The notes: generated by a model not told the origin, from the sequence alone. 64,000 bases of DNA from an uncultured Acholeplasma sp. (GCA_964648225.1 CAZYKH010000001.1:135959-199958), one strand, 5' to 3'. Shown: positions 1,090 to 20,095, counted from the stretch's first letter. A program made the numbers and translations.

Positions 1090-1093
1090 TCTA

Positions 1094-1558
1094 TCAACCT
1101 CTTATTAATCTATTGTATACATTGCCTTCTTTTTCAATGACTATTGCATCCACGGTTTTTCTATAAAAATCTAGGACGCCCTCGCCTGCACCACCGATGA
1201 TTGCATAACCGTAACCATCATGATACATAGCCTCTAAAGTATGTAAAATTAAAGCCTTCCCTATATTTTTCCCGCGTAAAGTTTGGTCAACACCGATTGG
1301 ACCAAAATAGCCTTTTGCTGTTGCATCATAAGCTGCGAAACCAACAATTTTATTTTCGTGTAATGCAACAAAACATGTTGGTTGGCTCTTATAAAGCGCT
1401 GCTTTGGCTTCTGCAGCCCAACCTTTTGAGAAGTTATTTTCGACAAATGTGATAATTTTATCACTATTTGGGGAAAGTGCTCTAACAATTATAACATCTT
1501 TTGCAGGCATTTTCATATTAAAATCTAAATTATATAAATGAACTAACATATCTTTCAT
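1094..1558 (-). CDS. GNAT family N-acetyltransferase
   Basis: 154 aa with a GNAT motif-A-like [11 protein letters not shown] core. Wedged between murQ (1-nt gap) and nagB (4-nt gap). Confidence 0.7.
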
Positions 1559-1559
1559 A

Positions 1560-2477: not shown

Positions 2478-2482
2478 AATTA

Positions 2483-3367: not shown

Positions 3368-4931
3368 AAACAATCGGCGAAACTCCTTTTGGTTTAAGTG
3401 TACCTTCTAAATACTTAACAACCGCTTCAATAGAGTTTGGTGTGTATTCATAAAAGGCTACATAATTTTTAATATTTTTTGTGTAATATAAATCATATGG
3501 ATTTCTTAAGGCTAAAACATGTAAGTCTTTGTTTAACGCACTTAAGTTATCAATAAGTTCAATTTGACTTTGATAAACATTTCCATTATACGATGTATAA
3601 ACTATTTGGTCAAAGTCTTGCGCGGTTGAGACTAACTGCTTTCTTTGTGATTCATTTGGATTAACATTTGCTTCAAGTACTGTCACATCTTTGAAATTTT
3701 GGCGTAAGCGACGTGCTAGTGTTGATTTATGTGAGTCTTCATCAGCAATGGTAGTAGCTTCAGGGTTGGTAGAAATAACTAATGTCTTACCACTTAATTT
3801 AAATGGATTTCCTTTAATTAAAGTCACTGCATCTTCTACAACTTGACGTGAAAACAATTTAGAACTCTCAGATTCAACATCCGCTTTAACATCTTCATAA
3901 GTACGTGTTAAATCAACATTTAGTTTTTCTTTATACTTTAAAGTACGTGCAACACGTTCATTTAAAGTATCCATAGATAACTCACCGGTTTTTAGTGCTT
4001 TGTTTAAGCGATCAGATGCACCAATTTGATATGGTAGATCATGACAGATACATACAAGGTTTGCACCCGCATTGACAGTCATTAAAGTCGCTTCAATCGT
4101 ACCGTAATTATCATGGATTGCTTTCATTTCAATACCATCGGTAATAATTAAACCTTCAAAGCCCATTTCTTCACGTAATAAACCTGTTAAAGCACGTTTT
4201 GATAATGTAACAGGTAAACCATTTTCAGTTAAATGCGTAAAGTTAATATGTGCTGACATAATCGCATCAATACCTGCTTTAATCGCCGCTTTAAATGGTT
4301 TAAATTCAAACTTTTCTAATTCAGATAATGGTTTTTCTACTTTTGGTAGTGCTAAGTGTGAGTCTACATGTGTATCGCCGTGACCTGGAAAGTGTTTTGC
4401 TGTTGCTACAATATGGTTTTGTAAACCTTCAATATACGCATTACCAAATGCTGCAACTTTATCTGGGTTATCTGAAAAACTACGTACACCAATGACTGGA
4501 TTTTTCGGATTATTATTGACATCTAATACTGGTGCTAAATCCATGTTAATACCTAAGTCAATTAATGTTTTACCCATTAAATCACCAATTTTATAAGCAT
4601 TATCTACTTCATTGGTTGCAGCAATGGTCATGGCTCCAGGGAAAAATGTTGCATCCTCAAAAATACGTGTGACCATACCACCTTCTTGATCAATAGTAAT
4701 ATATAGTGGTATACCCATTTCTTCCATTGCTATTTTTTGTAAATCTTGGTTTAACTTAAATAATTGTTCTGCTGATTCTACGTTTCTTGAAAATAGTAAA
4801 ATGTTACCTACTTTATATTCACGGATAAGTTTTTCAATTTCTGGTGTGACTGTTGTACCGTAAAAACCAGCAACAATCAGTTGTCCAATTTTTTCTTGAG
4901 TTGTTAATTTATTCATATCAAATTTACGCAT
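3360..4931 (-). CDS. nagZ: glycoside hydrolase family 3 beta-N-acetylglucosaminidase, no signal peptide
   Basis: GH3 motifs KHFPGHGDTHVDSH and GLIITDGIEM. Start moved from 4991 to ATG 4931 (MRKFDMNKLTTQEKIGQLIV), which has AGGAGG 10 nt upstream and overlaps the namZ stop by 8 nt. Confidence 0.9.
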   Translation of the reverse strand: MRKFDMNKLTTQEKIGQLIVAGFYGTTVTPEIEKLIREYKVGNILLFSRNVESAEQLFKLNQDLQKIAMEEMGIPLYITIDQEGGMVTRIFEDATFFPGAMTIAATNEVDNAYKIGDLMGKTLIDLGINMDLAPVLDVNNNPKNPVIGVRSFSDNPDKVAAFGNAYIEGLQNHIVATAKHFPGHGDTHVDSHLALPKVEKPLSELEKFEFKPFKAAIKAGIDAIMSAHINFTHLTENGLPVTLSKRALTGLLREEMGFEGLIITDGIEMKAIHDNYGTIEATLMTVNAGANLVCICHDLPYQIGASDRLNKALKTGELSMDTLNERVARTLKYKEKLNVDLTRTYEDVKADVESESSKLFSRQVVEDAVTLIKGNPFKLSGKTLVISTNPEATTIADEDSHKSTLARRLRQNFKDVTVLEANVNPNESQRKQLVSTAQDFDQIVYTSYNGNVYQSQIELIDNLSALNKDLHVLALRNPYDLYYTKNIKNYVAFYEYTPNSIEAVVKYLEGTLKPKGVSPIVYE

Positions 4932-6057
4932 AAAGCTTGAACCTCCTAATTGATTGTTCAAATATTTTTTCATCTTGTTTAAACCCTTCAAATATGAGGT
5001 CTAAATCCACACTTGTTTTTAACTTATTATCACCAGTTAATAAATCAATCATTTGATTGCTACCTTCAGTCCAGGGGACTCGAAATTCAAACTCTTTATA
5101 ATCTTTTCTAATTAAATCAAGAAGTTTGTAACCAAATTTTACAGGTTCAAATATGTTTTTATCTCTTAAAAATATTTCTATACCAGAACAATTTTTCCCT
5201 TCATGTTTACTAAAATTCGGAATAAAATGTACTGGTCTAACTAATATGCCCGGTGTTTGCCAAGCACTCACCTTTTTAGCGAGATCATCTGCATCGATAA
5301 ACGGTGCACCAATCATACTAAATGGTCTGGTTGTGCCACGACCTTCACTAACGTTTGTGCCTTCAAACACACAAGTACCTAAATAAATGTGTGCACTATC
5401 TAAAGTAGGAATATTTGGACTTGGTGCTAACCAAGGTAGGTTATAGTCCATAAAATCTTTATCATAGCTATAACCTGTCATTGGTATTACCGTTAAGTCA
5501 CAACCAATATTTTGTACTTCATTAAAATATAATGCAAGTTCACCTATGGTCATGCCATAACGTTGTAGGATTGGATAATACCCAACAAATGAACGGTATT
5601 TTAAATCTAAAATATTACCTTCAAGTCGATGTCCTACCGGATTTGGTCTATCAAATACAACAAATTTAAGTCCATGTTCTTTTGCTGCTTGCATCGCATG
5701 ACTCATTGTATAAATGTATGTATAAAATCTCGCCCCAACATCTTGCATATCAAAACATAAAACATCAACATTTTTAAGCATCTCTACATTAGGTCTTCTG
5801 TTTTTACCGTATAGTGAATGTACTTCTAAGCCCAGTGCTTTATCAAAGTAGCTTTCAACATGAACACCTGCTTCTGCATCTCCACGTATACCGTGCTCAG
5901 GACCATATAAAGTTGTTAAGTTGACCTTCTTACTTAATATATCTGCAGTAAGTTCTAACGATGAATTCACGCCAGTTGGATTGGTAATCAAACCAACACG
6001 TTTACCTTCAAATAGGTGTAAATATTCATCAATACGATCAATACCTAGTTTAAACAT
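4924..6057 (-). CDS. namZ: DUF1343 family exo-beta-N-acetylmuramidase (NamZ/YbbC-like), no signal peptide
   Basis: 377 aa; N-terminus GKRVGLITNPTGV and overall DUF1343 pattern. Sits beside nagZ, as ybbC-ybbD do in Bacillus subtilis. Confidence 0.85.
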   Translation of the reverse strand: MFKLGIDRIDEYLHLFEGKRVGLITNPTGVNSSLELTADILSKKVNLTTLYGPEHGIRGDAEAGVHVESYFDKALGLEVHSLYGKNRRPNVEMLKNVDVLCFDMQDVGARFYTYIYTMSHAMQAAKEHGLKFVVFDRPNPVGHRLEGNILDLKYRSFVGYYPILQRYGMTIGELALYFNEVQNIGCDLTVIPMTGYSYDKDFMDYNLPWLAPSPNIPTLDSAHIYLGTCVFEGTNVSEGRGTTRPFSMIGAPFIDADDLAKKVSAWQTPGILVRPVHFIPNFSKHEGKNCSGIEIFLRDKNIFEPVKFGYKLLDLIRKDYKEFEFRVPWTEGSNQMIDLLTGDNKLKTSVDLDLIFEGFKQDEKIFEQSIRRFKLYA

Positions 6058-6706
6058 TGGCCTTATCCAAACTTTCTATATATTCAACAACATTTCTAAA
6101 GATTAATGCATAAAGTAAAACCATCACTGACATACCCATAAAGACTAAAACTAAGACGAGTAATGGATGTAGGAATAATACAATCGGTATAAATAATATA
6201 ATGACTGCAAGTACCGTTCTAAAGATAAACTTACCACTTAAGAAGAATGCAAACTTAATCATGAGCCATATATTTGTATTTGGATATACAACCATAATTG
6301 GTAATGTATACATTGCAACAAATAAGACACTTAACACCATAATAATCATCACATATTGACCAACTAAGTTCATTGGCGATGGATTGGCTTCTAAAAAGTC
6401 ATTGTAGATTGTTAAGTTAATGACGCCGACAAAAATAGCTGCTGCTAAAATAAATCCGATTTTTAATTTTTGTTTAAAATCTTCTATAAAAAACTTAAAG
6501 TAAGTTTTAAAGATTGGTGTTTCTTCTTTTTTCAAGAACTTATGAAACATCTTATATCCAGCAATTAATGCTGGATATAAGGTTACAATTGGTAAGCTTG
6601 TTACAATAATTAATACGTTAATAACAATTAATCGAATAATCCAATCAGCAATTGTATTTAATTTTTGATATAAACTTTTATCATAAGTTTTATTTTCTTT
6701 TTTCAT
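6050..6706 (-). CDS. DUF624 (YesL-like) integral membrane protein
   Basis: 218 aa with about 6 predicted TM helices. The N-terminal pattern is typical of YesL-family proteins that accompany sugar ABC importers. Confidence 0.65.
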   Translation of the reverse strand: MKKENKTYDKSLYQKLNTIADWIIRLIVINVLIIVTSLPIVTLYPALIAGYKMFHKFLKKEETPIFKTYFKFFIEDFKQKLKIGFILAAAIFVGVINLTIYNDFLEANPSPMNLVGQYVMIIMVLSVLFVAMYTLPIMVVYPNTNIWLMIKFAFFLSGKFIFRTVLAVIILFIPIVLFLHPLLVLVLVFMGMSVMVLLYALIFRNVVEYIESLDKANV

Positions 6707-7704
6707 TAGCCTACAATACCTGTTCTTTCTATCGATTCAACGAATTGTCTTTGGACAAATAGATACATAATTAGAAGTGGTAACATCATGAGTAATGCAG
6801 CAACGTTAGAAATAGTTGCTAAAAACATTGGGTTAGACCAAACGTCTTGACCAATTAAGCTTAAACCACCTGTATAGAATAATGCCGCATAGACATTTTC
6901 AGCTGCGTTGACGAGACGCATCGTTAAAATCGGGAATGCTTCAGATAAGATGTTAAAGATCGATGCATAATATGTATCGTTCCATTGCCATACAAATGCA
7001 AATAACCCAACAGTAACTATCGCACCTCTAGCATTTGGCAACATAACATTCCAAAATATTCTAAAGACAGATGCACCATCGACTTGAGCCGCTTCTTCTA
7101 ACTCTTTAGGTAGCCCTTGGAAGAAACTTCTAAAGATGTAGATGAAAATACCACTACGTATACCTTGACCTAATCCACTCATTAAATAAATTGCATTTTC
7201 ACTACCAACAATACCTATTTCTCTAAAATATAAGTATTGAGCTAATGATAAAGCTTGCGGTGGAATAATAATTGTTAATATAACAAAGAAGAATAATATA
7301 TTACTTCCTCTAAATTTAAGTCTAGAAAATGCATAACCTGCTAGTGCTGTAGATGCAACTTGTAACACCATGGATATACCACTGAGTTTAAAGGTATTTA
7401 CCAAGGAGTTCCAATAATCTAATACGATGGCTGCTAATTCAAAGTTTTGTAAACTCCAGTTTTTAGGAATCCAAATAACTGAAGGGTCGTTTGAATCAAT
7501 TGGTGCTCTAAGACCTAGTAAAACTTGTTGGATGACTGGGTATAAAATAATGAAACATAACCCACCTAATAATAGGCCACGTAATACAGATAATAAGATA
7601 CTTTGGAACTTACGAATACGTCTTAATTGTTTACCGTGTTCTTTAGCTGCTTCAACTAAGGTAAGTTTACCTAAAGTACGATCTGCTGTAATTTTAATGT
7701 TCAT
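6706..7704 (-). CDS. carbohydrate ABC transporter permease (MalG-like)
   Basis: 332 aa, multi-TM, with EAA loop EEAAQVDGASVFRIFWNVMLP. Confidence 0.9.
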   Translation of the reverse strand: MNIKITADRTLGKLTLVEAAKEHGKQLRRIRKFQSILLSVLRGLLLGGLCFIILYPVIQQVLLGLRAPIDSNDPSVIWIPKNWSLQNFELAAIVLDYWNSLVNTFKLSGISMVLQVASTALAGYAFSRLKFRGSNILFFFVILTIIIPPQALSLAQYLYFREIGIVGSENAIYLMSGLGQGIRSGIFIYIFRSFFQGLPKELEEAAQVDGASVFRIFWNVMLPNARGAIVTVGLFAFVWQWNDTYYASIFNILSEAFPILTMRLVNAAENVYAALFYTGGLSLIGQDVWSNPMFLATISNVAALLMMLPLLIMYLFVQRQFVESIERTGIVG

Positions 7705-8641
7705 AGTGTGACCCTCCTACTTTAAATATTTTTGCTAGTAAGAAGACTACAAGTAAAGTACCAAGTATGAAGAGGACATAAATCCACGCCATTGCTGAAC
7801 TTAAGCCCCAGTTTTGTGTATTTAATTCATGTTGAATAATACCAGAAACTGGTGATGTTAAGAATGTATCTACAAGTGCGTAGACAACAACCGTTAATAT
7901 GTGTGGACTCACATTTGGTAGTGTAATTAACCAAAATGTTTCATAACCAGTTGCACCTTCGATTTTTGCTGCTTCGTATAAATGTTTAGGTATAGATTGA
8001 ATACTTGCTAAAAATAGTAGAATTGGTACCCCACTTAATGATAATATATCATAAATTCGGTCGATTAATCCGACAACAAAGTTCACCATAAACTCTGGTA
8101 TGCCCGTTTGTAGAAGGAAAAAGTGTAAGTCAAATATTTGGCCAATACCTTGTTGTTCTAAAATTTCCGTCATAATAGATCCACCACCAAGTGCAGATGC
8201 AACTGCAGCAGAGTTTAATATAACAGGTACGAAAAATATAGCACGAACGATCGCTCGACCTTTAAACTTCATGTTTAATAATACGGCCATAAATAAACTA
8301 AAGATTAATAATACCGGTAAGTTAAAGGCAACATCCGTCATTGTATTAATCATTTCAACACTAAAACTTGTTGAAGTCGATGTACTGACGTGTTGATTTA
8401 ATGCATATAAATAGTTATCAAAACCAACATGTTCAAATAAAATGGAGCCTACTTGTGGTGTAAGTTTATAAAAACTATAATTTAACGATTGGAAAAACGG
8501 CACAATAAATAGTAACAATAAGCCGATAAACCATGGCAACAAGAATACAACTGCCCATAACAGTTTTTGACGTTTATATGTCATTTCAAACTTCTTCTTA
8601 CCGTTAGGATTTAGTTGTTTGTTTGACGCTGTATCTTGCAT
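7694..8641 (-). CDS. carbohydrate ABC transporter permease (MalF/LplB-like)
   Basis: 315 aa, multi-TM, with EAA loop YEAAKIEGATGYETFWLITLP. Confidence 0.9.
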   Translation of the reverse strand: MQDTASNKQLNPNGKKKFEMTYKRQKLLWAVVFLLPWFIGLLLLFIVPFFQSLNYSFYKLTPQVGSILFEHVGFDNYLYALNQHVSTSTSTSFSVEMINTMTDVAFNLPVLLIFSLFMAVLLNMKFKGRAIVRAIFFVPVILNSAAVASALGGGSIMTEILEQQGIGQIFDLHFFLLQTGIPEFMVNFVVGLIDRIYDILSLSGVPILLFLASIQSIPKHLYEAAKIEGATGYETFWLITLPNVSPHILTVVVYALVDTFLTSPVSGIIQHELNTQNWGLSSAMAWIYVLFILGTLLVVFLLAKIFKVGGSHYEH

Positions 8642-11229
8642 TAGAGGGCTCCTTTCGTTATATAGTAATTCATTCCAGAAACTACGTTACCATCGACAAC
8701 GACATTAAATAAGTTGTAGTTAATGATGATTTCTAAACCATTTGAATATTGCACCTTATACACGTTATTAAAACCACTTAATTTTTCATGATTTACCAAA
8801 TAACCTTCGGCAATTTTCATGCCATTTAAGGTTTTAACTTGTTGTTCAATAACATCTAACCAGTTGACATAATGGGTTGACATATATTCATTGTGTTGTG
8901 TATTTAATAGTTTTTGTGAACTGTCATAAGATAATGTATATTTAATGTTTGATCCAGTTTCTAAAGCTTTTAAAAATTGGAACTGTGGACTACGGTTACT
9001 TGATAAGTTCATCGAGTCACCAGTATATTCTTTCATACCACTTATGACAAGTTGCATAAATGGTACGGCATAGTCAATTAAGCCATAAAGCGTTGTTTCT
9101 GTTGGTACATTATCAAAACTTGTGCCATATGGAATTGCAAATCCTAATGGACTTGAAATTAAGATATCTTCATTGATTTGTTGTAATAAGTTTTCTTGAA
9201 TCAATAAAGCATCTTGTTTATAAATTGTATTGTTGTAATCATGGTTTGAAACAATTTGAGAACCAATAATATTTAAGCTTAAACCTGATGTATACACTTG
9301 TTTACTAAATTGTTTATATTGTGCTTCATAATAAAGTGGATTAATTAAATATTGACTACCATCACTTGAAACCGTTGCTACTTCAGATTCTGGTAAAAGA
9401 GATGGCAAGTGATAACTGTAAAGCATGGATTCTGATCCACGTATACGTTTCGTATTGTAAATGGATTTATCTAATAAACCACGATACGCTTTGGTTGAGG
9501 CAAAGTTAACATTTTGATATAGGTTAATCCCTTTAGATTCAAGTAAGTTTGAAAAACTTGCAAACTTATCACTGCCACCTAAGACAGATGGAATACGATT
9601 TCTATCAAACATTTGATTATCTAATCCACCGTTTGCAACACCTAAGTAATTGACATTGATATCAGTAATACCACGTTGTTCTAAAGCATTAATAATTTCT
9701 AATGCTTGATCAAATGTTGTTAAACTATCTAATCTTGTATAAGGAATACCTAAGAAGAAATCCTTTTTATCAAATGCACCAAGTAGCTCTGCTGTTAAAA
9801 CAGTTTTTGTTGTTTCATCTGTTTTAGTTAAACCTTTTTCATGAATTAAATAATCACGGTAGACGTTTGCAATACCCACATAGTTATTGTCTGTACCACT
9901 TAAAAAGTGGAATGCAACTTCAAAGTCTGTTTGAACAATATCTTTAGTTAGTAGTGTCACACCATATTGGTTAAAACCAGAACCTAAAATAACTTGTTCA
10001 GTTTCTCTGACTTGGAATGATGCAAACACACGGTTATATGAGTCACGACGATTCGATACGTCAGCATTGACATATGCCATGGCATCGCCTTGGGTAATAA
10101 TTGCTGCAAAACCATTGTTTTCTTTCACCATACCAAAAACTGGTAAGTTTAATTTTTGTTGTTGTTCAGCCATTTTCATAGGCATTTGTGATAAATCCAT
10201 ACCATACATACGTTTTCTATACGCTGCTTGGTTGGTTTTACCATTGTTAAATTCCATAATGGCACCACTCCCATCTGGTATGAAAATATAACCTTCAGAT
10301 GGCTGATCGTTAACAATCATATGTGCTGTGCCAAACATAGGATACAGTGAGATTTCAGAAAGTCTACCACCAGTTTCAACGATTGAATCTTTAATGATTT
10401 TGGTATTAATACCGTAGTCTTCTAAAGTTACTTCGACCCCTATTTTAAATTGGACACGACTAATTTCTTCTACAATACCAAACTGGTAGTTTAATTCTTG
10501 AATATCTTCTTCAGTAAATTCTAAAGTTTCATAAAATATTTCAAATAAGATTCTTTTAACACCGACACTTAAATCTGATTCATAATTTAATATATGGTAA
10601 GCATCGAGTGCTTCATCATAACCTAAATATGCATATAGTTGTAATCTGGATTGAATTTCTTCATCAAATGTAGCCATTAATTCTGCTGGAATGTATTTTG
10701 GAAAATATAGGTTTGTTATATCATCAGAACCAATGGTATAAAGCACTTGAAATCCATTATCAAGATATTTAAATTGATAGGTACGTTTACCCGCAGGATC
10801 TTTAACACCCGCCGGATGAGAAATACTTAATGCATAGTTGTTCGCAGTTGTAACAGAACCTGCATCATTATAATAGTTAAATTCTAATGTAGCCATTTGT
10901 CTATTTCTAGCAGCAGGGGTTGTACCCGGTCTTGTATCATTAGTTTGAGGGTTGGATAACCATATATAACCTGTAAATTTATCCAGTACACTAAAGTGAG
11001 ATGTTGTTTCATCAAAGTATAGTTCATACTGATCATTAAAGGACACTAACTGGTTTGTTTCTGTTGCATCTTGTGCATCCATAAAACCGGTTGTATCAAA
11101 TGCTTGTGTAGTTTGGTATGTATAACTTGCCTTCGATAAAGGTATACCGATTGCTATAAACAATAGTAAGGCAACAAACAAGACACCAATGATTAATTTA
11201 ATATAATGTTTTTGAATAAATAGTTTCAT
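8641..11229 (-). CDS. N-terminally membrane-anchored 862-aa extracytoplasmic protein, DUF5696-like; candidate glycoside hydrolase
   Basis: Single N-terminal TM ([19 protein letters not shown]) followed by a large soluble region. From memory it resembles DUF5696 proteins found next to Yip1 and large SBP genes. ATGA overlap with the upstream gene. Confidence 0.5.
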
Positions 11230-11864
11230 CGTCGTAACCCCAATTCTTCAATAATTGCTGAGATAAACGCTATAATTTGCTGAATCACATCAAAGAATAG
11301 TAAGCCTAAAAACATCATAACCATCATCGAAACGGCGGTTGCTATAAATGCCATGATGGTTTTTAATAAGCCATATTGATGGATGTTTAAAATACCCATA
11401 AATAACATCCAACCTGTTAAGAAATATGCAATACCCATTGCAAGTGTATAAAATGCCATTTCATCTAAGGTTAAGAAGTTTGAGATAAATAATGCTGGAT
11501 AACCAATGATGATTACTGGAAATAAAGCATATCCAGTGACCATTAATATTTCTTTAAACTTACCTTTACCTTCCATTAATGTTGTCACAGACCAGTTGGC
11601 TGTAACAAATAATATCACAAGTAAGCCAACCACAAATATTTCTTGTAAATTGTTGATCATCATTGGATTACGTTCATTAATTAAAAAGCTTTCATATTGA
11701 TAGGTTAAAATGCGTAGTAAAGCAAACAAAGCGATATAAACTAATGCAACGCTCAGTTTACCTTTCTTTTCTGTTTTAAATTCATCATACCCATCAAATG
11801 GATGCATTAATATATATTTAGGAAAGGATAGGTAATCATTAATAATAAGTTTAAGTTTGTTCAT
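11226..11864 (-). CDS. Yip1-domain integral membrane protein
   Basis: 212 aa with five hydrophobic segments and a Yip1-like topology. 1-nt overlap upstream and 4-nt overlap downstream. Confidence 0.6.
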
Positions 11865-13675
11865 TATTTTATGCTATCCTTTCTTTTTCTAATTTGTTTA
11901 TAAACTATAAATGCAGTAGGTAGGGCTAAAATCGCTAAAAAGATATAACCAAAATTTTCTTTTATAAGTTGATTTCTGTAGGACTTATACGCTCTAGAAT
12001 AATAGTATTTATCATAACCATACTTAAAATATTCCATCGCTGTTTCATAGTCACCTTTTCTTAAATAGTATTTACCAATACCATTGTAAGCAACCTCATA
12101 GTTTGTATTTAAGACAAGTACTTCTTCCCATAGTCTAGCTGCTTGTTCAAACTCACCACGTTCATGGTGATAAATTGCTTCATTAACAGTTTGACCAAAT
12201 TCTGTATGTTCATAAACAACAACAGTTCTTAAGTCTTTATCTAAGACTAACAAGTTGTCGCCAAAATAATCTAAGGCAACACCACTGGTAAACTTATCTA
12301 ATTGTTGGCCTGCTTCACCGTTGATATAAAGTAGGTTACCTTCAGCATCATAGGTAAATAATCTTGATCGTTTTGCATCTAAGACTGTATAGATACCATC
12401 TTTGTATATAGCAACATCAACAAGTCTTGATGGACCATCAACAACATAGTTATTCATGCCTTCAACAAAATGAATATCACCTTTTGGTACATGGTATCCA
12501 TTACGTATTAAGACATCAACACCTTTCGGGTTGATAAGTTGAATCATATTATCTGAGTTATTTGTAGATGCTAAAGATGTTGCATAAATAAAGTTTTCTT
12601 CGCTCATCGTGACATTGGTATAACTGGTTGGTAAAAACTTTGGTAGTTTATCAATTTGTGCATCACTCATCCAAAAACGGTTAAAGATATCAATCGGACT
12701 TAAAGTAATTGGGTTAACACCTGTAAAGCGGTTAAATGAACCATCTGTATCAAGCTCAATAATACCTTCGAAAACATCTCTGGCAACAACATACATTCTA
12801 CCGGTAGAATCGGTTGTCACTTTAAGTGGCATAAAATCAAGTTCATCAAATGTAATATCATCAATTTCTTGAAAGATATCAATGACTTCAAAGTGATGAT
12901 TTAATTTAACAATACGGTTGTTATTGGTATCTGCAATATAAATACCTGTGTGTGCAACATCTAATCCCATAGGTGTATTTAGTGTTAACGGTTCTAAGAA
13001 GTTTAATACTTCACTTCTTTCAACTGTTGTTACTAATTCTAGTACCGGGATTGGTTTGGTTGCATCTAAATCTAAATCAACTCTCGTTGCTTCATTTTCT
13101 GCTTTAGCTTCATTATAGATGGTTGTAATACCACTATTTGTGGTAGTTAACAATTGACCTAATTGAGTTGGTACATAATTTTGATTTGCTAGTGCTAAAT
13201 TACCATCAATCATTTGGTCTACTTGATCATTAAAGAATGTTTTTCTATCGTTTGCTAAAAACTCTAAATCATCAATACTTGTTGTTGCTTCATTACCAGC
13301 AGTTTGAATACCATCTAAAATCTCAAGTTTATAAAGATTAAAGGTGTCTTCTAAATCTGCGACTGTTTCAAATAAATAGTCTCTATAATCTTCTGAAATT
13401 AAAAAGTCTTTAAAATAATGTTCTAATGCAAAGTTATCATTGACCACAGCTAAAGCATTTGATCCACTGGATATAACAAATATTTCATTTTCAAAAACGA
13501 CTAAATCTTCTGGACTAACTAAATCGACACCTAATGTGCGATCACTAAATGTTTGAGCATAACTTAAACCTGGTGCTGAATGAATTACTTCACCATAATA
13601 TGAATAGTTATAACGTATGATTGAAAAGTTTATTGGTAATGTAAATATAAGAGAGATAAGTGTAAATAATTTCAT
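11864..13675 (-). CDS. exported NHL-repeat beta-propeller / TPR protein with C-terminal TM anchor
   Basis: 603 aa with an N-terminal hydrophobic signal. NHL-like motif GIYIADTNNNRIVKLN; C-terminal TPR-like YNGIGKYYLRKGDYETAMEYF; then TM FGYIFLAILALPTAFIVY and a KQIRKRK tail. Confidence 0.6.
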   Translation of the reverse strand: MKLFTLISLIFTLPINFSIIRYNYSYYGEVIHSAPGLSYAQTFSDRTLGVDLVSPEDLVVFENEIFVISSGSNALAVVNDNFALEHYFKDFLISEDYRDYLFETVADLEDTFNLYKLEILDGIQTAGNEATTSIDDLEFLANDRKTFFNDQVDQMIDGNLALANQNYVPTQLGQLLTTTNSGITTIYNEAKAENEATRVDLDLDATKPIPVLELVTTVERSEVLNFLEPLTLNTPMGLDVAHTGIYIADTNNNRIVKLNHHFEVIDIFQEIDDITFDELDFMPLKVTTDSTGRMYVVARDVFEGIIELDTDGSFNRFTGVNPITLSPIDIFNRFWMSDAQIDKLPKFLPTSYTNVTMSEENFIYATSLASTNNSDNMIQLINPKGVDVLIRNGYHVPKGDIHFVEGMNNYVVDGPSRLVDVAIYKDGIYTVLDAKRSRLFTYDAEGNLLYINGEAGQQLDKFTSGVALDYFGDNLLVLDKDLRTVVVYEHTEFGQTVNEAIYHHERGEFEQAARLWEEVLVLNTNYEVAYNGIGKYYLRKGDYETAMEYFKYGYDKYYYSRAYKSYRNQLIKENFGYIFLAILALPTAFIVYKQIRKRKDSIK

Positions 13676-13684
13676 ATAATCCTC

Positions 13685-14578
13685 CTACTTCAGACCAGAT
13701 GTACTAAATGTTTCTACAATCTTAGATTGTGAGAATATAAAGAACACAACTGGAACAATCATCATAATAAATGCAACCGCTGCAACGGTACCTGCACGTT
13801 CAATAGAGCCTTGTGCAATTTGACGCAATGCAAACGATAACGGCTTAAATTCTTCACTAAAGATAAATGCACCACCATCAGTTGTCCATAATCTTTGGAA
13901 GAGTAAAATAATTAATGTTAACCATGCTGGTTTAACCAGTGGCATCACAATTTGGAAAAATATACGATATTCGCTTGCACCATCTATTTTTGCAGATTCA
14001 ATTAACTCTGTTGGTACTTGTTCCATAAATTGCTTCATTAAGTATAACCCTAATGAGGAAGCAATTGCCGGTAAGATGATCGCAAACGGTGTATCAATTA
14101 ATCCAATCCAAGAAACAATAATATAGTTTGGCGTTGCTGTAACTTGAGGTGCAAACATCAGTGAGTATACAACGAGCATAAAGATAATTTTTGAACCTGG
14201 AAATTTATATTTAGCTAGTGGGTATGCACACATACTTGCAATCAGAACGTGTCCTGCAGTACCGGTTATCGTAATAAAGATTGTATTAAAGAAATATCTA
14301 GAAAATGGAATCCATGAATTACCAATAAGTTCTGATAAATCTCTAAAGTTATTAAATGTGATATTTCTAGGTAGTAATGTTGGTGGGAAAACAAAGAGCT
14401 CATCTAATGGCTTAAATGCATTAGATGCTGTCATAATTAATGGATATGCTGAAAATATCCCAAATATTGCCAGTAAAATAAATAAGGCAATATCGCCACC
14501 TAATGAACGGTTGAGTCTTTTGCGTTTTTTAATTTTACGTTGCATCATAAACTTTTGAACAGCTTGCATATTACTCAC
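13685..14578 (-). CDS. carbohydrate ABC transporter permease (MalG-like)
   Basis: 297 aa with EAA loop ESAKIDGASEYRIFFQIVMP. GTG start per the ORF track; an alternative ATG lies at 14569. Confidence 0.9.
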   Translation of the reverse strand: MSNMQAVQKFMMQRKIKKRKRLNRSLGGDIALFILLAIFGIFSAYPLIMTASNAFKPLDELFVFPPTLLPRNITFNNFRDLSELIGNSWIPFSRYFFNTIFITITGTAGHVLIASMCAYPLAKYKFPGSKIIFMLVVYSLMFAPQVTATPNYIIVSWIGLIDTPFAIILPAIASSLGLYLMKQFMEQVPTELIESAKIDGASEYRIFFQIVMPLVKPAWLTLIILLFQRLWTTDGGAFIFSEEFKPLSFALRQIAQGSIERAGTVAAVAFIMMIVPVVFFIFSQSKIVETFSTSGLK

Positions 14579-15500
14579 CCATCCTTCTTAAGAATTTTTG
14601 GACAATTAAGTTTGCACTAATCATAATAATAAATAACACGGTTGCAATCGCTGATGCATAACCTAGGTCAAATCGAATGGAACCATAGTCAATCAAGTGC
14701 GTTACAATGGTATGTCCTTCATATTGTACTGATGGGAACCCAACTAATTGCATCGACACTTCAGCAATCGCAAGTGATGTTGTAATTTGCATCACGGCCC
14801 CAAATAATAATTGTGGTTTCATAGATGGAATCGTAATGTACCATAATTCCTGCCATCTATTACGAATACCATCGATACTACCTGCTTCATAAAGTGTTTT
14901 ATCAACACCTTGAAGACCAGCAATAAAGGCAAGGAATGAAACCCCTAAACTTAGCCATAATTGAACTAATATAATAACAAATAACATATAATCTGGGTCT
15001 CGTAACCATAAGATTGGGTTATTAATCAGACCAAACTGCATTAAGAAAGCATTGGCATAACCATGAACGTCACCTGAAAAGATTAATAACCAAATTAAGA
15101 ATGCATTACCACTAATGGAAGGTGCATAAAATACTAAGGTCATAAACGCTCTAAGTTTTGGTCTAAGTTCATTAATTAACCAGGCAAATACGAAAGCCAG
15201 TAAGTAGGATACTGGACCCGTAACAACCGCTAAGACAAGCGTGTTTCTAATGGCGATGATAAATATCTCATCGTCTAGTAATAATTTTATATAGTTATCA
15301 AAGCCCACAAAACGTGGTGCTTCTAACATGTTAAATTGGGTAAAACTAATACCAAGTGACATGAATACTGGAATAATTGTGAAGGTTAAAAACAAGATTA
15401 AATACGGTGCCATTAACACATATAAATGTTTTGACTCCTTCATTTCTTTCCAAAGCATTTTGGATCTAGTTTTAAAATCTGGTTTAGCTGTAGCTTGCAT
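14571..15500 (-). CDS. carbohydrate ABC transporter permease (MalF-like)
   Basis: 309 aa, multi-TM, with EAA-like YEAGSIDGIRNRWQELWYITIP and RBS AAGAGGA upstream. Confidence 0.9.
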   Translation of the reverse strand: MQATAKPDFKTRSKMLWKEMKESKHLYVLMAPYLILFLTFTIIPVFMSLGISFTQFNMLEAPRFVGFDNYIKLLLDDEIFIIAIRNTLVLAVVTGPVSYLLAFVFAWLINELRPKLRAFMTLVFYAPSISGNAFLIWLLIFSGDVHGYANAFLMQFGLINNPILWLRDPDYMLFVIILVQLWLSLGVSFLAFIAGLQGVDKTLYEAGSIDGIRNRWQELWYITIPSMKPQLLFGAVMQITTSLAIAEVSMQLVGFPSVQYEGHTIVTHLIDYGSIRFDLGYASAIATVLFIIMISANLIVQKFLRRMGE

Positions 15501-15513
15501 ATAGATCCTCTTT

Positions 15514-18429
15514 CTAATCTAATCCGAACTCGCGACGTTTCTTAGCAAGTTCTTCATTAATCATTTGTACATAATCATAAATCGTCTCACGTGGATTTGC
15601 AGCTTCGTTTAATACGAGTCTAAATGCGTTATCTAAGTGACGACCTGTCATGTACCCACCTGGTACTTCTGGAATACCTCTTACCCATTGCCATTGTTCT
15701 TTAAGTTTTGCTAGTTCATCAACAGTCCATGGAAGTTGTTCCATCGCCTCAACGTTTGCGGTAGGATATCTTGCAGCAGCTCCTAAAATACCTTCTAGTT
15801 CACGACCAAAACGCATTTGAGTTTCTGTAGAAGTCCACCACTTTAAGAATTCCCATGACTCTTCTTTTTTAGTTGATTGGTTTAATATAATACCACCTGT
15901 ACCACTTGCAACAGTTTCACGGCGAATTTGTGTTTGCCCAAATTCATCCACGTATTCTGTACCAGGTACAGCAATAAAGTTCCATTTACCACGTATCTCA
16001 GGTGCAAAAACACTTAATACGTTGTAAGTATTGTAATAAGAGATACCAATTGGCATTTGTCCACTTCTAAAGCGGTTGTTGAAGTTTGCTTCAACAGGGA
16101 ATGAGTAGTTCGTATAAAAGGATGTCCACTGTTCAAATACTTGCGGTCCCATACCTTCATTAAAGCCTGATTGGCGATCCCCATCAATATAAAACTCACC
16201 ATCATTTTGGTAAAACATTGTTGAGAAAATCGGATTTGGTGGTAGCGTAACTGCCGCACCTTGTGTTAGTGGTACGGGTAAGTAAAACTCTAAGTTGTGT
16301 TTTTGAAGAGATGGAATCATTTCAACAACTTCACGCCATGTATTTGGCGGTGTAAGACCAATTTCTTCAAAAATATCTGTACGGTAAAACATCATTAAAA
16401 ATATTTGTTGTTCAGGTAGTGCGTAGTATTTACCATCAAATTCATATGGTACCATTGCACTTGGCATGAATCTTGTTACAATTTCATCGAAATCATCAAA
16501 TTGACTTAAATCATAAACTGCATTACGCATTGCATAGTTTACAGGTGTCGAGTCTGCTTGACCAATGGCCACATCCGGTCCACGGCCAGATAATGTTGCT
16601 GGAAGTAAACTTGCAGCCGATACTAATTTTAAGTCCACTTGTATTTGATGTTGTGGTGCAAATGATTCGTCAATTAATTTTCTTAAAATGTTTGCTTGGT
16701 CTTGACCAATCGATAACCATACATCAATGGTTTCATTGACTTGACCAGTATCAATACGTCCAACAGATGCAAAATCTGTTGTAAAAGATGCTAAAAATGA
16801 TCTAAAGCCAAACCAAGTACTTTCAAAGAATCCTGGTCTTGCTTGCGGTAAATCATAGTTTTCGTTATGTAATATAAAATAATCAATTTCTAATGGTTGA
16901 CTCGATAATAAAATAACGAGTGTTCCTAATGAAGATATGTTTGAAACATAGGTTGAAAGGCTATTTTGAATGTCTCTAGGACGATCTATAAAGTCTTCTA
17001 ATTGTAAAATAACCGTATCTAAAATACCAGTTTTTTCACTTCTATTTCCTGATGCATCAATGAGTGTTTGTCGTATCAGTTTTGCTTGTTCTAATTCAGT
17101 TTCAAATCTTTCAAGTAAATTTGGAATACGATTGACTAACTCATAATCTCTAAATGGGTCCGGACTTGGTCCGGTATAAATTAATATTTCTCTATAAATT
17201 TTATTTAAATTATCAATGACATGTTGTAAGTCAGAAATAAGTTGACCATAAATACCAAGTGAAACTTCCATGGTTAACTCATGTTCACCAGCTTCTAAGT
17301 AAAATAAGAATGCTTCTTCTTCAGTACCTAGTGTTTGAATACGCCAGTCGTTTGAAAATTTGAATGCGAACCCTTCCATTTCTTTAAATGGAATTTCTCC
17401 GTCAATATAAATATCTCTAAAAACAACCATACCGTTGGCTAAGCGTTGTTTTACACGCATAGAAATTTCATAGAGTCCTGACTTAGGAACCGAGAATTTC
17501 CAAGAGATTTGGTCACCCGCTTTATCCCAGTTCGTTCCACCCATTGTATTTAACTTAATCAATGTTGGATCTGATGGTGATGTTCTAGCAGATGTACGAT
17601 CATTTAAAGGATAAAGTGTTGGTGATGTTGTACGAATTGCAGATTCTGCTTCAATAATTTCAACTTTATCTTCGACAGTTTGATATCCGTTTTGATCATA
17701 AATTGCTTTAACTTCTTCATAGCTTGGTAATTCTCTTACTGATACTAACTCAACAGATTCTATGAGTAACGGTTCTCTTAAACTTTCAAAAGTTATCGTG
17801 TGTGAACCCGGCTCAAAATAAAATTTAAATGGCTCTGTAATATAACCTAATGGGTCACCAATGAGTTTGGATGTCCATATTGGTTTTTCAACTTGACTAG
17901 GCCTGATATCATTACCAACATAGTCTTGAATCACTTCGCCTTCACTACCAAAATAGCGGTGAAATATAATGTTTTCTGCTGCATCAAAAGGCGTTACCCC
18001 ATCTAAATACACACGACGCTCTATCGCCGAGTTTTTACCTGGATACGCATAATAATTAACACGAATATTGTAAAACCCTTCAGTTTCAACTTCAACCGGC
18101 AAGGTAATAGATCCTGTTTCATCAGTTAAAACAGATTCTGAAACACCCTCGAAATTATATTTAATTTCGTAGTTGCCTTCTATATCTGTAAAATCTGTAG
18201 CCGAAATCAAAATTGTTTTGTCTTCTGGAAATATTTGTGGTTTTGATGCAATATAATCTTCATAGTCTTTGACGTAAGAATCCTCACCAGGTTCTCTGTT
18301 TGTATCAACACTTAAACTTGTATTGTATTTTAAGTGATTATTATCAAAGGCTATACTGAGTGTGTCATTAATTATAAACGCAATAAACGCAATTAATAGC
18401 ACCAATAATGTTATGTGTAATCTTTTCAA
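15514..18429 (-). CDS. 971-aa TM-anchored protein: two CBM/galactose-binding-like domains + helical region + family-1 extracellular solute-binding domain
   Basis: TTG start with GAGGTGAGG RBS; N-terminal TM with no lipobox. Two ~150-aa beta-sandwich-like segments (GFYNIRVNYYAY.., GLYEISMRVKQR..). The C-terminal half resembles SBP_bac_1 (DVWLSIGQDQANILRKLIDESF..). Confidence 0.7.
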   Translation of the reverse strand: MKRLHITLLVLLIAFIAFIINDTLSIAFDNNHLKYNTSLSVDTNREPGEDSYVKDYEDYIASKPQIFPEDKTILISATDFTDIEGNYEIKYNFEGVSESVLTDETGSITLPVEVETEGFYNIRVNYYAYPGKNSAIERRVYLDGVTPFDAAENIIFHRYFGSEGEVIQDYVGNDIRPSQVEKPIWTSKLIGDPLGYITEPFKFYFEPGSHTITFESLREPLLIESVELVSVRELPSYEEVKAIYDQNGYQTVEDKVEIIEAESAIRTTSPTLYPLNDRTSARTSPSDPTLIKLNTMGGTNWDKAGDQISWKFSVPKSGLYEISMRVKQRLANGMVVFRDIYIDGEIPFKEMEGFAFKFSNDWRIQTLGTEEEAFLFYLEAGEHELTMEVSLGIYGQLISDLQHVIDNLNKIYREILIYTGPSPDPFRDYELVNRIPNLLERFETELEQAKLIRQTLIDASGNRSEKTGILDTVILQLEDFIDRPRDIQNSLSTYVSNISSLGTLVILLSSQPLEIDYFILHNENYDLPQARPGFFESTWFGFRSFLASFTTDFASVGRIDTGQVNETIDVWLSIGQDQANILRKLIDESFAPQHQIQVDLKLVSAASLLPATLSGRGPDVAIGQADSTPVNYAMRNAVYDLSQFDDFDEIVTRFMPSAMVPYEFDGKYYALPEQQIFLMMFYRTDIFEEIGLTPPNTWREVVEMIPSLQKHNLEFYLPVPLTQGAAVTLPPNPIFSTMFYQNDGEFYIDGDRQSGFNEGMGPQVFEQWTSFYTNYSFPVEANFNNRFRSGQMPIGISYYNTYNVLSVFAPEIRGKWNFIAVPGTEYVDEFGQTQIRRETVASGTGGIILNQSTKKEESWEFLKWWTSTETQMRFGRELEGILGAAARYPTANVEAMEQLPWTVDELAKLKEQWQWVRGIPEVPGGYMTGRHLDNAFRLVLNEAANPRETIYDYVQMINEELAKKRREFGLD

Positions 18430-18458
18430 AATGCCTCACCTCAATGAAAATGGTACCT

Positions 18459-18491
18459 CCTTCCTTATGTCATATAAAAACATAAGGAAGG
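18459..18491 (-). promoter_or_regulatory. intercistronic stem-loop between the two binding-protein genes
   Basis: Perfect 11-bp stem CCTTCCTTATG / CATAAGGAAGG (18459-18469 / 18481-18491) with an 11-nt loop and no immediate T-run. Likely an mRNA-stabilising or partial terminator element downstream of the first SBP gene. Confidence 0.5.
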
Positions 18492-18511
18492 TTATACCAA
18501 GTTCGTTTCTT

Positions 18512-20095
18512 TTAATCTTCTCCTAGATATGTCGCTAGTGCGTCTTCGTAAATTGGTTTAATTCTTTCCATCTCTGTTCTTGCATCACCATTTTGGATTG
18601 CTAGGTTTGCTGCACCATACCATCCATTTGCTGCAAATTTAGAGATACCTAATGCACCAGTTAAATCTAATGTTGTCTTATCAAAAATACTTAAGTATGC
18701 ATCAATTGATGCTGAATCGTTAAATCTTTGAATTAATGTTGCATGGAATTCTGTCGATAATTCTTCGTCAGTTTTCCACATTTGAATTTCATTCCATACT
18801 TGGAACGCTAATGCTTCTTTTTCTGCACTTAATCCACTTGCTATTGTATAAACTGCAACACCACTAATCGGTGAAACATACTCACCGGTATATGTGTCGC
18901 TAACTGGATAAGGAACAAATCCAACATCAAAGTTTAATCCTGCCCATCTATTATCTGCGTTTAAGAACCAGAAACTACCTGGATGGAGCGCAACTTTACC
19001 AGCTATCCATAAAGCAGAACCTGCGTCATATTGTGGTGAACCTTCCCATAGACCTTTATTGGATAATCCATGTAAGAAGTTATATGTTTCTAATGCTGGT
19101 GCTTGATGGAATGCAACACGACCTGATCTTGCATTAATGAGTGAACCACCATTTAAAGGAATCATATTTTCTGCATAAACAGCTTTAATACCACCTAATA
19201 CACGGTAGTCATCACCCATACTTGGTAATGCTGCTTGAGCTGCATCAGCCCATTGTTCAAATTTAGACCAAGTCCATTCACCATTATTAAATAGTTCTGC
19301 TGGGTTATCTAAACCTAAGTCATTGATTAGTTCTACGTTAAAGTATAGACCTACATCCACTGTTGGTTTATTTACTGAAAACGCATAGAATTGACCTTTA
19401 AATGTACCTAGTTCCTTTGCTGGAGCTGTAATATTAGATCCTGTAGTACTTAAGTACTTATCTACTGCTGCGATTGCGTTTGCATTAGCAAGTTGAGCAG
19501 TCCAGTCAGATGTTGTCCAATAAATATCTGCTAATGGAGCACCTTCAACTGATGCTTGAATAATTGCATTTACGCGGTCTGGTCCCCAAGTTGCAGCCGT
19601 TGGATATGCTTTATATACAACTTTAACATTTAATCTTTCTTCAACTTCTCTTTGTTTATTTTGTCTAGCTTGTTGTTCTCTACCAGAGAATGCTGGATCA
19701 AATGGGTCAACTTCATATGGTGCACCGTGCATAATAACAATTTCAGTCGGAGGTGTTGTATGGACTATCTTCACTGTAATTGTTCTTTTTTTAGTGACGA
19801 CATTTCCATCTGAGCCTTCAACTGTATAAGTTAGTGTATAAGTACCAGCTGCACTCGTTACAACTGTACCTTCTACATTAATACGTGATGTAATATCACC
19901 ATCTACAGTATCGTTTGCTGTGACCCCTTCCATTGGATCAAATGCGTCCCCTACATTAATTGTTTTATCTGAAACTCCAACAATTGTTGCAGTGTTTTCT
20001 TCATTACCATTGCCATTATCATCGCCGCCGTTACCACAAGCTGCTAAAGTAAATAGCATCACAAACAGTAATAAGAATGAGAATATCTTTTTCAT
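18512..20095 (-). CDS. lipoprotein: Ig-like (DUF5011-type) domain fused to ABC sugar-binding protein
   Basis: Lipobox LAAC|G, an NG/D-rich linker, a DUF5011-like segment (GDITSRINVEGTVVTSAAGTYTLTYTV), then an SBP_bac_1-like domain. RBS AAAGGAG. Confidence 0.85.
   Translation of the reverse strand: MKKIFSFLLLFVMLFTLAACGNGGDDNGNGNEENTATIVGVSDKTINVGDAFDPMEGVTANDTVDGDITSRINVEGTVVTSAAGTYTLTYTVEGSDGNVVTKKRTITVKIVHTTPPTEIVIMHGAPYEVDPFDPAFSGREQQARQNKQREVEERLNVKVVYKAYPTAATWGPDRVNAIIQASVEGAPLADIYWTTSDWTAQLANANAIAAVDKYLSTTGSNITAPAKELGTFKGQFYAFSVNKPTVDVGLYFNVELINDLGLDNPAELFNNGEWTWSKFEQWADAAQAALPSMGDDYRVLGGIKAVYAENMIPLNGGSLINARSGRVAFHQAPALETYNFLHGLSNKGLWEGSPQYDAGSALWIAGKVALHPGSFWFLNADNRWAGLNFDVGFVPYPVSDTYTGEYVSPISGVAVYTIASGLSAEKEALAFQVWNEIQMWKTDEELSTEFHATLIQRFNDSASIDAYLSIFDKTTLDLTGALGISKFAANGWYGAANLAIQNGDARTEMERIKPIYEDALATYLGED

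Follow-up and report, generated by a model that had tools for sequence, protein, structure and literature searches.

Conserved array of two ABC importer blocks with dedicated accessory proteins in a putative peptidoglycan-scavenging locus of an uncultured Acholeplasma

A stretch of 64,000 nucleotides from an uncultured Acholeplasma sp. (GCA_964648225.1 CAZYKH010000001.1:135959-199958), referred to below as the window, carries at positions 6706-20095 of its minus strand an array of ATP-binding cassette (ABC) sugar importer genes together with three genes for accessory surface and membrane proteins. On the sequence evidence the host is a wall-less Mollicute with the standard genetic code, and the closest named relatives of the window proteins come from Acholeplasma laidlawii, at about 70% identity. 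The array is rather probably the core of a conserved two-transporter glycan-uptake system of the CUT1 type with dedicated accessory proteins, acting here as the uptake stage of a locus for peptidoglycan scavenging. This reading is built on directly observed features, namely the gene content, the conserved gene order, NHL-Yip1 fusions, protein folds, the predicted partition of proteins between inside and outside, and residue patterns.

Organization and conservation of the importer array

The array and the gene following it comprise these features (SBP, solute-binding protein; TMD, transmembrane domain; CBM, carbohydrate-binding module):

18512-20095, minus strand: ordinary SBP lipoprotein, 527 residues; lipobox, Ig-like domain (Pfam), MalE-like SBP
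15514-18429, minus strand: giant signal-anchored SBP, 971 residues; SBP_bac_1/8 and weak CBM35 (Pfam)
14571-15500, minus strand: permease P1a, UgpA/MalF-like TMD with EAA motif (Pfam and NCBIfam)
13685-14578, minus strand: permease P1b, UgpE/MalG-like TMD with EAA motif (Pfam and NCBIfam)
11864-13675, minus strand: NHL/TPR ectoprotein, 603 residues (AlphaFold2 model and Foldseek; Pfam subthreshold)
11226-11864, minus strand: Yip1-family membrane protein, 212 residues (Pfam Yip1)
8641-11229, minus strand: DUF5696 signal-anchored ectoprotein, 862 residues (Pfam DUF5696, PF18952)
7694-8641, minus strand: permease P2a, TMD with EAA motif (Pfam and NCBIfam)
6706-7704, minus strand: permease P2b, TMD with EAA motif (Pfam and NCBIfam)
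6050-6706, minus strand: small membrane protein of the DUF624/MusI family, 218 residues (Pfam DUF624)

All nine open reading frames (ORFs), on the minus strand, were recovered at the coordinates given in a preliminary description of this DNA, and its domain calls for 6706-18429 hold as well, by Pfam and, for the NHL protein, by AlphaFold2 model and Foldseek. The genes form two blocks: block A, composed of the giant SBP, P1a and P1b, and block B, composed of the NHL/TPR protein, Yip1, DUF5696, P2a and P2b. In block A, 13 nt separate the giant SBP from P1a, P1a and P1b overlap by 8 nt, and a gap of 9 nt leads from P1b to the NHL/TPR gene. The genes of block B overlap throughout, by 1 nt (TAATG) at the NHL/TPR-Yip1 junction, 4 nt (ATGA) between Yip1 and DUF5696, 1 nt between DUF5696 and P2a and 11 nt between P2a and P2b. 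From the giant SBP through NagB all junctions lie between -14 and +13 nt, with the exception of NamZ/GH3. The tight coupling described previously is borne out, although one gap, of 13 nt, exceeds the 1 to 10 nt that had been given. Stoichiometric co-production of the module proteins, stated as a consequence in the preliminary description, is at most suggested by such overlaps. The scan for promoters and terminators returned fewer promoter-like sites than shuffled sequences did and was uninformative on operon boundaries.

The transport core belongs to the known CUT1-type importers. All four permeases match BPD_transp_1 in Pfam and carry the EAA loop motif, so that both pairs should dock an ATPase; with the family-1 SBPs, the array holds the binding protein and two-subunit TMD set of a CUT1 importer, here with four subunits in two pairs. 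No ORF with both Walker A and LSGGQ motifs was found in the window or in the 74 genome loci described below, and the ATPase is presumably supplied in trans from elsewhere in the genome. The missing local gene is consistent with the CUT1 systems of Gram-positive bacteria, which are served by shared MsmK/MsmX-type ATPases encoded elsewhere. Family-1 SBPs, MalF/UgpA- and MalG/UgpE-like TMD pairs with EAA motifs, and an operon devoid of an ATPase gene are shared with CUT1 importers. The array differs in that its two pairs of TMDs and its two SBPs form a fixed, conserved unit with three extra proteins, and in that one SBP is about 970 residues long, signal-anchored instead of lipidated, and equipped with tandem CBM35-like modules.

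The giant SBP consists of (i) an N-terminal transmembrane helix; (ii) CBM35-like beta-sandwiches at about residues 100-215 and 298-392; (iii) a helical region; and (iv) a family-1 sugar SBP at about 565-971. The best match of its C-terminal half among PDB sequences is Lin1841 (E 3e-26), a binder of sophoro-oligosaccharides. Its N-terminal half is a tandem duplication (internal self-match E 1e-6), in which the CBM35 signal is subthreshold, yet recurs in 16 of 19 orthologues. An N-terminal hydrophobic anchor is present in 85 of 88 orthologues and a lipobox in just four, which indicates anchoring by the signal and not by lipidation. The 527-residue SBP matches a maltodextrin-binding protein of the PDB over residues 179-435, and its orthologues bear a lipobox in 75 of 87 cases. 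Hydropathy analysis also revealed an N-terminal anchor on the DUF5696 protein, an N-terminal hydrophobic helix and a C-terminal transmembrane segment (residues 575-601) in the NHL/TPR protein, and 5-6 hydrophobic segments in the Yip1 protein; the same pattern recurs across about 90-120 orthologues. Membrane tethering of all accessory components, as proposed earlier, is therefore retained, whereas their uniformly outward orientation is not, as Yip1 is a polytopic protein with five transmembrane helices and not an ectoprotein.

The 218-residue protein scores 45.5 bits against Pfam DUF624 (cut-off 24.2), and its gene accompanies the array in all Mollicute loci and in a few gut loci. In the MusEFGK2I system of Corynebacterium, a CUT1 maltose importer, the small accessory membrane protein MusI is essential. 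The window protein matches the MusI family model (NCBIfam NF052431) at 62.4 bits, which is under the curated cut-off of 160, and the Mus system is devoid of DUF5696, NHL and Yip1 components. By analogy, the DUF624/MusI-like protein may be an accessory to sugar ABC importers.

The conservation of the array was examined in two surveys. Species-representative genomes were scanned with a DUF5696 profile, which gave 74 loci, whose ORFs were called and matched to the window proteins. A non-Mollicute DUF5696 profile confirmed 583 relatives among 600 pattern matches in metagenomes, and the best 80 were analysed. The core gene order is kept in 40 of the 41 genome loci with enough flank, and all eight core genes occur as separate ORFs in 37 of these 41 testable loci, with NHL/TPR and Yip1 fused in three more. 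The exception is a solo DUF5696 gene (L073). In the Acholeplasmatales and Izemoplasmatales the order from the 822-residue protein U822 through NagB is identical in every locus with enough flank, while the eight-gene core without NamZ or MurQ was found in Clostridia and in an Anaerolineae (Chloroflexota) metagenome-assembled genome (MAG), where DUF5696 identity is just 25-27%. In the metagenomes, DUF5696 directly follows NHL/Yip1 in 58 of the 60 loci that could be tested and is directly followed by P2a-P2b in 62 of 64; artefacts of parsing or frameshifts account for the few exceptions. The layout far exceeds chance, and the co-conservation on which the proposal of a module hinged is borne out. 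Median identities among Mollicute orthologues reach 80% for P1a, 82% for P1b and 69% for Yip1, and DUF5696, at 47%, is the least conserved core protein.

Solo DUF5696 genes, encoding about 755 residues and located outside any ABC module, occur in three Clostridiales/Eubacteriales MAGs (L072, L073 and L074). Their neighbours encode homoserine O-succinyltransferase, DUF4364 and HAD phosphatase, a second context for DUF5696, and their products retain the PDGSGA and AAIITxGD motifs.

Among the 31 loci with full flanks, block A lies upstream of block B in 27, downstream in two and is absent within 10 kb in two (L132, L134). The order of block B, by contrast, was never broken in about 60 testable loci of three phylum-level lineages, and an ordinary SBP of about 450-500 residues is present in all 31 full-flank loci. 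The window array thus consists of two importer blocks that are separable and have one SBP each, and is not the single importer with four accessories that had been described; the ordinary lipoprotein SBP at 18512-20095, left out of the module at that time, is the probable cognate SBP of one permease pair. DUF5696 as a substitute SBP for P2a/P2b was considered and rejected as the primary model, given the ordinary SBP that accompanies block B in 31 of 31 full loci.

The DUF5696 ectoprotein and the NHL/TPR-Yip1 unit

The 862-residue protein matches Pfam DUF5696 over profile positions 1-612 with 528 bits (cut-off 25.6; E 4e-158). Clustered at 50% identity, the family counts 4,961 representatives, and no mention of it was found in the literature searched, in agreement with the earlier remark that the module is unstudied. 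Structure and profile searches, which had been suggested for this protein with glycoside hydrolase (GH) families in view, revealed a GH fold. The AlphaFold2 model (pLDDT 83, pTM 0.84) comprises an N-terminal beta domain, a (beta/alpha)8 barrel starting at about Y450, and a C-terminal beta-sandwich, an architecture of the GH129/GH101 type. Foldseek matched the model to DagB (5opq; E 2e-28, target TM-score (TMt) 0.67) and to NagBb (5wzp; E 4e-21, TMt 0.70), with further matches to GH101, GH36 and GH31. In profile searches of PDB sequences DagB was found at 7.5e-5 with the Mollicute profile and at 6.4e-9 with the non-Mollicute profile, the latter in three colinear segments spanning all three domains, and NagBb at 9.6e-5. 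These matches point to a real, albeit remote, homology of DUF5696 to GH129-like enzymes.

The three-domain architecture is thus shared with GH129 and GH129-like enzymes (NagBb, DagB ZGAL_3152) and with GH101. In contrast to them, the DUF5696 protein shows about 10-12% identity, is membrane-anchored, has its gene invariably placed between NHL/Yip1 and a pair of ABC permeases and, in the window and its clade, lacks Asp at the positions that bracket DagB D486/NagBb D435. Pfam gives the 862-residue protein no GH129 match. The protein was not filed as a GH129 member, because the Asp nucleophile at the end of barrel strand beta4 appears to be absent from it, as judged at columns defined by a positional bracket of moderate strength.

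The mapping was performed as follows. Among 152 diverse DUF5696 members the most conserved residues are P318-D319-G320-S321-G322, Y342, D345, Y450, T504, D719, P723, N741, E757 and H814. The residues essential in DagB are D202, D486 (equivalent to the nucleophile D435 of NagBb), E517 and E531, and the two enzymes differ in the acid/base residue, for which DagB uses an Asp from its N-terminal domain (PMC5698469). The homologue search with a 131-residue DagB fragment returned no matches and hence no sequences for profile-profile alignment, so catalytic positions were mapped by positional bracket. Its anchors (window Y450 to DagB Y300, G551-552 to about 400-409, and H814 to H630) place the counterpart of D486 at window residues 637-670. 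This interval holds the model strand 649-652 and two Asp-rich columns, 654 and 662. Non-Mollicute members (n=151) have Asp at 654 in 79 cases, at 662 in 114 and at one or both in 138 (91%). In the Mollicute clade of peptidoglycan loci, Asp is found at neither position in 44 of 50 members; the window protein has I654 and N662, and the clade has variously H, S, N or T at column 662. In the same clade D319, D345, D719, N741 and E757 are kept at 100%, and Y591, R595, H607, E616, R746 and K763, variable in other members, are newly fixed. This pattern suggests, with moderate strength, that the canonical nucleophile has been lost in Mollicute DUF5696 and the binding site kept and re-tuned. The new basic residues could bind the lactyl carboxylates of N-acetylmuramic acid (MurNAc), and hydrolysis by DUF5696 in this clade is doubtful.

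Both Asp candidates have been lost independently in seven of 74 metagenome orthologues that lie in ordinary contexts and remain part of the module (L141, L144, L150, L075, L084, L085 and L088). Three of these seven also lost D719, replaced by Asn, which suggests that the Asp candidates at the end of beta4 and D719 work together.

The second accessory protein, of 603 residues, gives TPR and NHL signals in Pfam that are subthreshold (NHL 19.1 against a cut-off of 20), although NHL scores reach 63 bits in its orthologues. Its AlphaFold2 model (pLDDT 73.7) shows a six-bladed NHL propeller and a TPR region, the former similar to the NHL domains of TRIM71 and TRIM2 (Foldseek, TM-score about 0.7). 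Within the propeller region lies a helical insertion of about 110 residues (about 95-200), modelled as three long helices. It is specific to the A. laidlawii-like clade; most orthologues are devoid of it and measure about 491 residues.

The 212-residue protein matches Yip1 (PF04893) with 43.5 bits against a cut-off of 28.6. NHL/TPR is fused to Yip1 in 22 of 58 metagenome loci and in three genome loci, and the fused proteins contain one transmembrane helix near residue 460 followed by five, the number expected from head-to-tail joining. The fusions argue that the separate NHL/TPR and Yip1 proteins of the window act as a single functional unit, with Yip1 as its membrane partner. YknW, likewise of the Yip1 family, modulates how the ABC complex YknXYZ assembles (PMC4887032) and offers, by analogy, a direct precedent for a scaffold role of Yip1. 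Common to YknWXYZ of Bacillus and the array is a polytopic Yip1-family protein encoded with an ABC complex having extracytoplasmic partners, in the former case needed for assembly. However, YknYZ is a MacB-type exporter, the TMDs described here are type-I importer subunits, and Yip1 is coupled here, often by fusion, to an NHL/TPR ectodomain. In view of YknW, a known assembly factor of an ABC complex, and of the remote GH129-like homology of DUF5696, the preliminary description went too far in placing none of the components in a characterised family.

The peptidoglycan locus and substrate context

The array is part of a locus of about 38 kb and about 28 genes on the minus strand (367-39398), with the transporter block at 6706-20095. 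The remaining features are:

38766-39398, minus strand: small lipoprotein, 210 residues (Pfam, hydropathy)
37178-38746, minus strand: secreted NAGPA-type phosphodiester glycosidase (Pfam, hydropathy)
35771-37174, minus strand: FAD-linked oxidase, D-lactate dehydrogenase type (Pfam)
34844-35689, minus strand: MurR/RpiR regulator, RpiR-SIS (Pfam)
33550-34731, minus strand: AnmK (Pfam)
32235-33533, minus strand: GH4 (Pfam)
31021-32238, minus strand: cytoplasmic GHL10 protein, 405 residues (Pfam, hydropathy)
27014-31024, minus strand: surface GHL10 protein, 1336 residues, signal peptide and C-terminal transmembrane helix (Pfam, hydropathy)
25974-27017, minus strand: beta-lactamase-fold protein, cytoplasmic, AmiE-like (Pfam, hydropathy)
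22906-25974, minus strand: lipoprotein, 1022 residues, four Big_2 domains, beta-helix and Amidase_2 (Pfam)
20288-22756, minus strand: U822, 822 residues, signal peptide, C-terminal coiled-coil and C-terminal transmembrane helix (hydropathy)
367-6057, minus strand: cytoplasmic enzymes NamZ, GH3 NagZ-like, BadF-type kinase, MurQ-like SIS etherase, GNAT and NagB (Pfam)

This set includes the enzymes of a MurQ-pathway locus: a MurQ-like protein (SIS/GKRP-type), BadF kinase, AnmK, NamZ, GH3, Amidase_2, an AmiE-like protein and an RpiR-SIS regulator. The beta-lactamase-fold protein at 25974-27017 is presumably comparable to AmiE of Bacillus subtilis. The embedding of the module in a locus for the catabolism of MurNAc and N-acetylglucosamine (GlcNAc), as stated previously, is borne out by these Pfam assignments. 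The catabolic enzymes from NamZ to NagB are syntenic in all 45 Mollicute loci with at least 6 kb downstream, and those of 367-6057, NamZ and GH3 included, are devoid of signal peptides. D-Lactate, for which an oxidase is encoded in the locus, is a by-product of MurQ, and anhydro-MurNAc, the product of lytic transglycosylases, is the substrate of AnmK. The AnmK gene is therefore in keeping with the GHL10 proteins of the same locus, as the lytic transglycosylase Cwp19 of Clostridium difficile has GHL10 for its catalytic domain (PMC6016235). More speculatively, the NAGPA-type glycosidase may strip remnants of wall polymers linked through GlcNAc-1-phosphate from MurNAc.

NamZ, NagZ, AmiE-like, MurQ, MurR and kinase functions are shared with murQ-murR-murP-amiE-nagZ-namZ of B. 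subtilis and with MurNAc scavenging by Tannerella. However, B. subtilis secretes NamZ and the GH3 enzyme NagZ and imports monomeric MurNAc via a phosphotransferase system (PTS) (PMC8054146). AmiE is likewise secreted there and MurP is the PTS transporter, whereas the enzymes of the window have no signal peptides, a PTS is absent and uptake would proceed through ABC importers; moreover, the wall-less host lacks a cell wall that it could recycle. The partition of the enzymes implies that foreign peptidoglycan would be cleaved outside, its oligosaccharides imported, and their degradation finished inside. In the literature searched, no paper was found that links Acholeplasma or Izemoplasma to MurQ or NamZ or describes peptidoglycan scavenging by them.

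Outside the Mollicutes, 104 ORFs flanking the module were scanned for enzyme families, and GH10 (8), GH26 (7), GH43 (5), CBM35 (4), GH5 (3), GDSL esterases (3) and GH130 (2) were the commonest, with frequent LacI, AraC and two-component regulators. By gene content these are xylan/mannan loci. The coupling of NamZ, NagZ, MurQ, AnmK, amidase and GHL10 to the module was found in Mollicutes only. The flanking GH families indicate that the core is uptake machinery of a generic kind, adopted for various beta-1,4-linked glycans, a series into which denuded peptidoglycan strands would fit. The proposed link of the module to MurNAc thus applies to the Mollicutes and is lineage-specific, the core being generic elsewhere.

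In one non-Mollicute locus (L097, 18129-22217), MurQ-like, beta-lactamase-fold and GNAT-like ORFs were found about 4 kb downstream of the module; it may represent a second lineage in which the module is coupled to amino-sugar catabolism. In the window, the GH3 ORF (3360-4991) starts at TTG and overlaps NamZ (4924-6057) by 68 nt; its true start is probably a downstream ATG, the translation containing MRKFDMNKL. In most Mollicute loci U822, which had no match in Pfam or PDB searches, immediately precedes the lipoprotein SBP, with an amidase in that position in L056.

Proposed function and alternative explanations

In the proposed mechanism, these components would act in sequential order. Foreign peptidoglycan would be cut at the surface by the GHL10 and Amidase_2 proteins, giving (anhydro-)muro-oligosaccharides freed of their peptides. 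The giant SBP with its CBMs and the ectodomain of DUF5696 would retain the anionic beta-1,4-linked glycan at the membrane of the wall-less cell, and the NHL/TPR-Yip1 unit would scaffold the ectoproteins with both permease pairs, as YknW does for YknXYZ. The two importers would then take up the (anhydro-)muro-oligosaccharides, to be dismantled in the cytoplasm by NamZ, NagZ, the AmiE-like protein, AnmK, the kinase, MurQ, NagB and D-lactate oxidase, whose activities are assumed from family membership. As both candidate nucleophile Asp positions are gone, DUF5696 of the Mollicute clade would most likely bind glycans and pass them on, and not work as a canonical hydrolase. Of the capture-and-processing machine envisaged in the preliminary description, the processing part is doubtful here, for the same reason and given that GHL10 and the amidase already supply cleavage.

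Several points weigh against this mechanism. Columns 654 and 662 were assigned to the catalytic nucleophile by positional bracket and not by structural superposition, so that the assignment is of moderate strength, and D719 and E757 are fully kept, and E616 newly fixed, in the Mollicute clade. Loss of Asp as a trait tracking peptidoglycan context outside the Mollicutes was rejected, since L097, with its MurQ-like neighbour, keeps both Asp residues. We infer the pairing of SBPs with permeases solely from adjacency and from the loci without block A; gene order is functional linkage and not proof of a complex; and NagA was not found within the window.

A tentative extension, less probable than the uptake role itself, is that NHL/TPR-Yip1, DUF5696, the giant SBP and the two importers form one surface super-complex, a Gram-positive, single-membrane counterpart of the Sus utilisome. 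It would take hold of beta-1,4 glycans in polymeric form, such as xylan, mannan and denuded peptidoglycan, and deliver oligomers straight to the permeases, and would have been re-tooled in Acholeplasmatales and Izemoplasmatales, with a DUF5696 pseudo-enzyme and new basic residues for MurNAc carboxylates, for life on the cell-wall necromass of other bacteria. The Sus-like utilisomes of Bacteroidota combine SusCD with surface glycan-binding proteins and surface GH enzymes. The resemblance is one of analogy: surface glycan-binding and GH-fold proteins are encoded with a transporter, and the substrate changes with the locus. However, the proteins and the membrane are entirely unrelated, and the transporters of the putative complex are single-membrane ABC importers and not TonB-dependent barrels.

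The best surviving alternative, which we nevertheless hold to be unlikely, is that DUF5696 is an active surface glycosidase here too, with non-canonical or relocated catalysis (D719/E757, E616, or assistance by the 2-acetamido group of the substrate), trimming or depolymerising peptidoglycan strands or their decorations just ahead of import by P2a/P2b. It draws on the GH129/GH101/GH36/GH31-type fold with its remote sequence homology, on the complete retention of D319, D345, D719, N741 and E757 alongside the invariant E616 and new basic residues, and on the catalytic plasticity of the fold, illustrated by the differing acid/base residues of DagB and NagBb. On the other hand, both Asp residues at the end of beta4 are absent in 44 of 50 clade members, with no new fixed residue at the variable column 662, and a median identity of 47% makes DUF5696 the least conserved core protein. 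To our knowledge, the solved relatives that share the fold all act on alpha-linkages, in contrast to the beta-1,4-linked backbone of peptidoglycan, and GHL10, Amidase_2, NamZ and GH3 already provide for endo- and exo-cleavage.

It is more improbable still that the permease pairs are independent ordinary sugar importers and that NHL/TPR, Yip1 and DUF5696 have a separate, co-regulated function unrelated to transport, as a sensor/regulatory unit or a glycan-binding adhesin. The separability of blocks A and B would agree with this, block A being permuted (L113, L125, L136, L139) or absent (L132, L134) in some loci, as would the generic nature of NHL propellers and TPRs as interaction modules and the two-component or LacI/AraC regulators near many loci. 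Yet NHL/Yip1, DUF5696 and P2a-P2b remain unseparated wherever block B could be tested and are joined by overlapping start and stop codons, no signalling output domains were found in NHL/TPR-Yip1 by Pfam, and a Yip1 protein has been proven to act in the assembly of another ABC complex. Export or assembly of the organism's own surface glycan, although Acholeplasma possesses surface lipoglycans and several of the proteins are surface-anchored and glycan-related, is very improbable and was rejected, because BPD_transp_1 TMDs with EAA motifs and family-1 SBPs define binding-protein-dependent importers and the neighbours are catabolic enzymes, with no glycosyltransferases in the locus.

If the glycan-uptake reading is followed, the array extends the usual picture of an ABC sugar importer, composed of an SBP, two TMDs and two nucleotide-binding domains, by three invariant partners: the DUF5696 ectoprotein, the NHL/TPR-Yip1 unit and the giant SBP. 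It recurs in hundreds of loci of Bacillota and Chloroflexota from gut, bioreactor and sediment, within xylan, mannan and peptidoglycan utilization loci, and the invariant association of a GH-fold ectoprotein, a propeller/TPR-Yip1 unit, a giant CBM-bearing SBP and two permease pairs is undescribed in the literature searched. Its accessory proteins have parallels, Yip1 in YknW and, by similar analogy, DUF624 in MusI. Should the partners form a complex, they would constitute a missing piece of polymeric glycan capture by Gram-positive and wall-less bacteria. For DUF5696 the analysis supplies a fold and a remote relationship to GH129, together with candidate columns for catalysis and two natural clades, Asp-plus and Asp-minus, that form a pair for comparison. 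A separate noteworthy point is that free-living wall-less Mollicutes, until now discussed as DNA degraders, carry a complete and conserved locus for putative peptidoglycan scavenging.

Outside the module region, the Rfam search of the window identified a T-box and a tRNA only. The T-box leader (51835-52051) is located directly upstream of pheS/pheT (50769-51788, 48415-50769) and the tRNA gene at 42681-42763. The remainder of 42-64 kb encodes housekeeping functions, among them PolC, LeuS, RsgA, RlmN and FakA.

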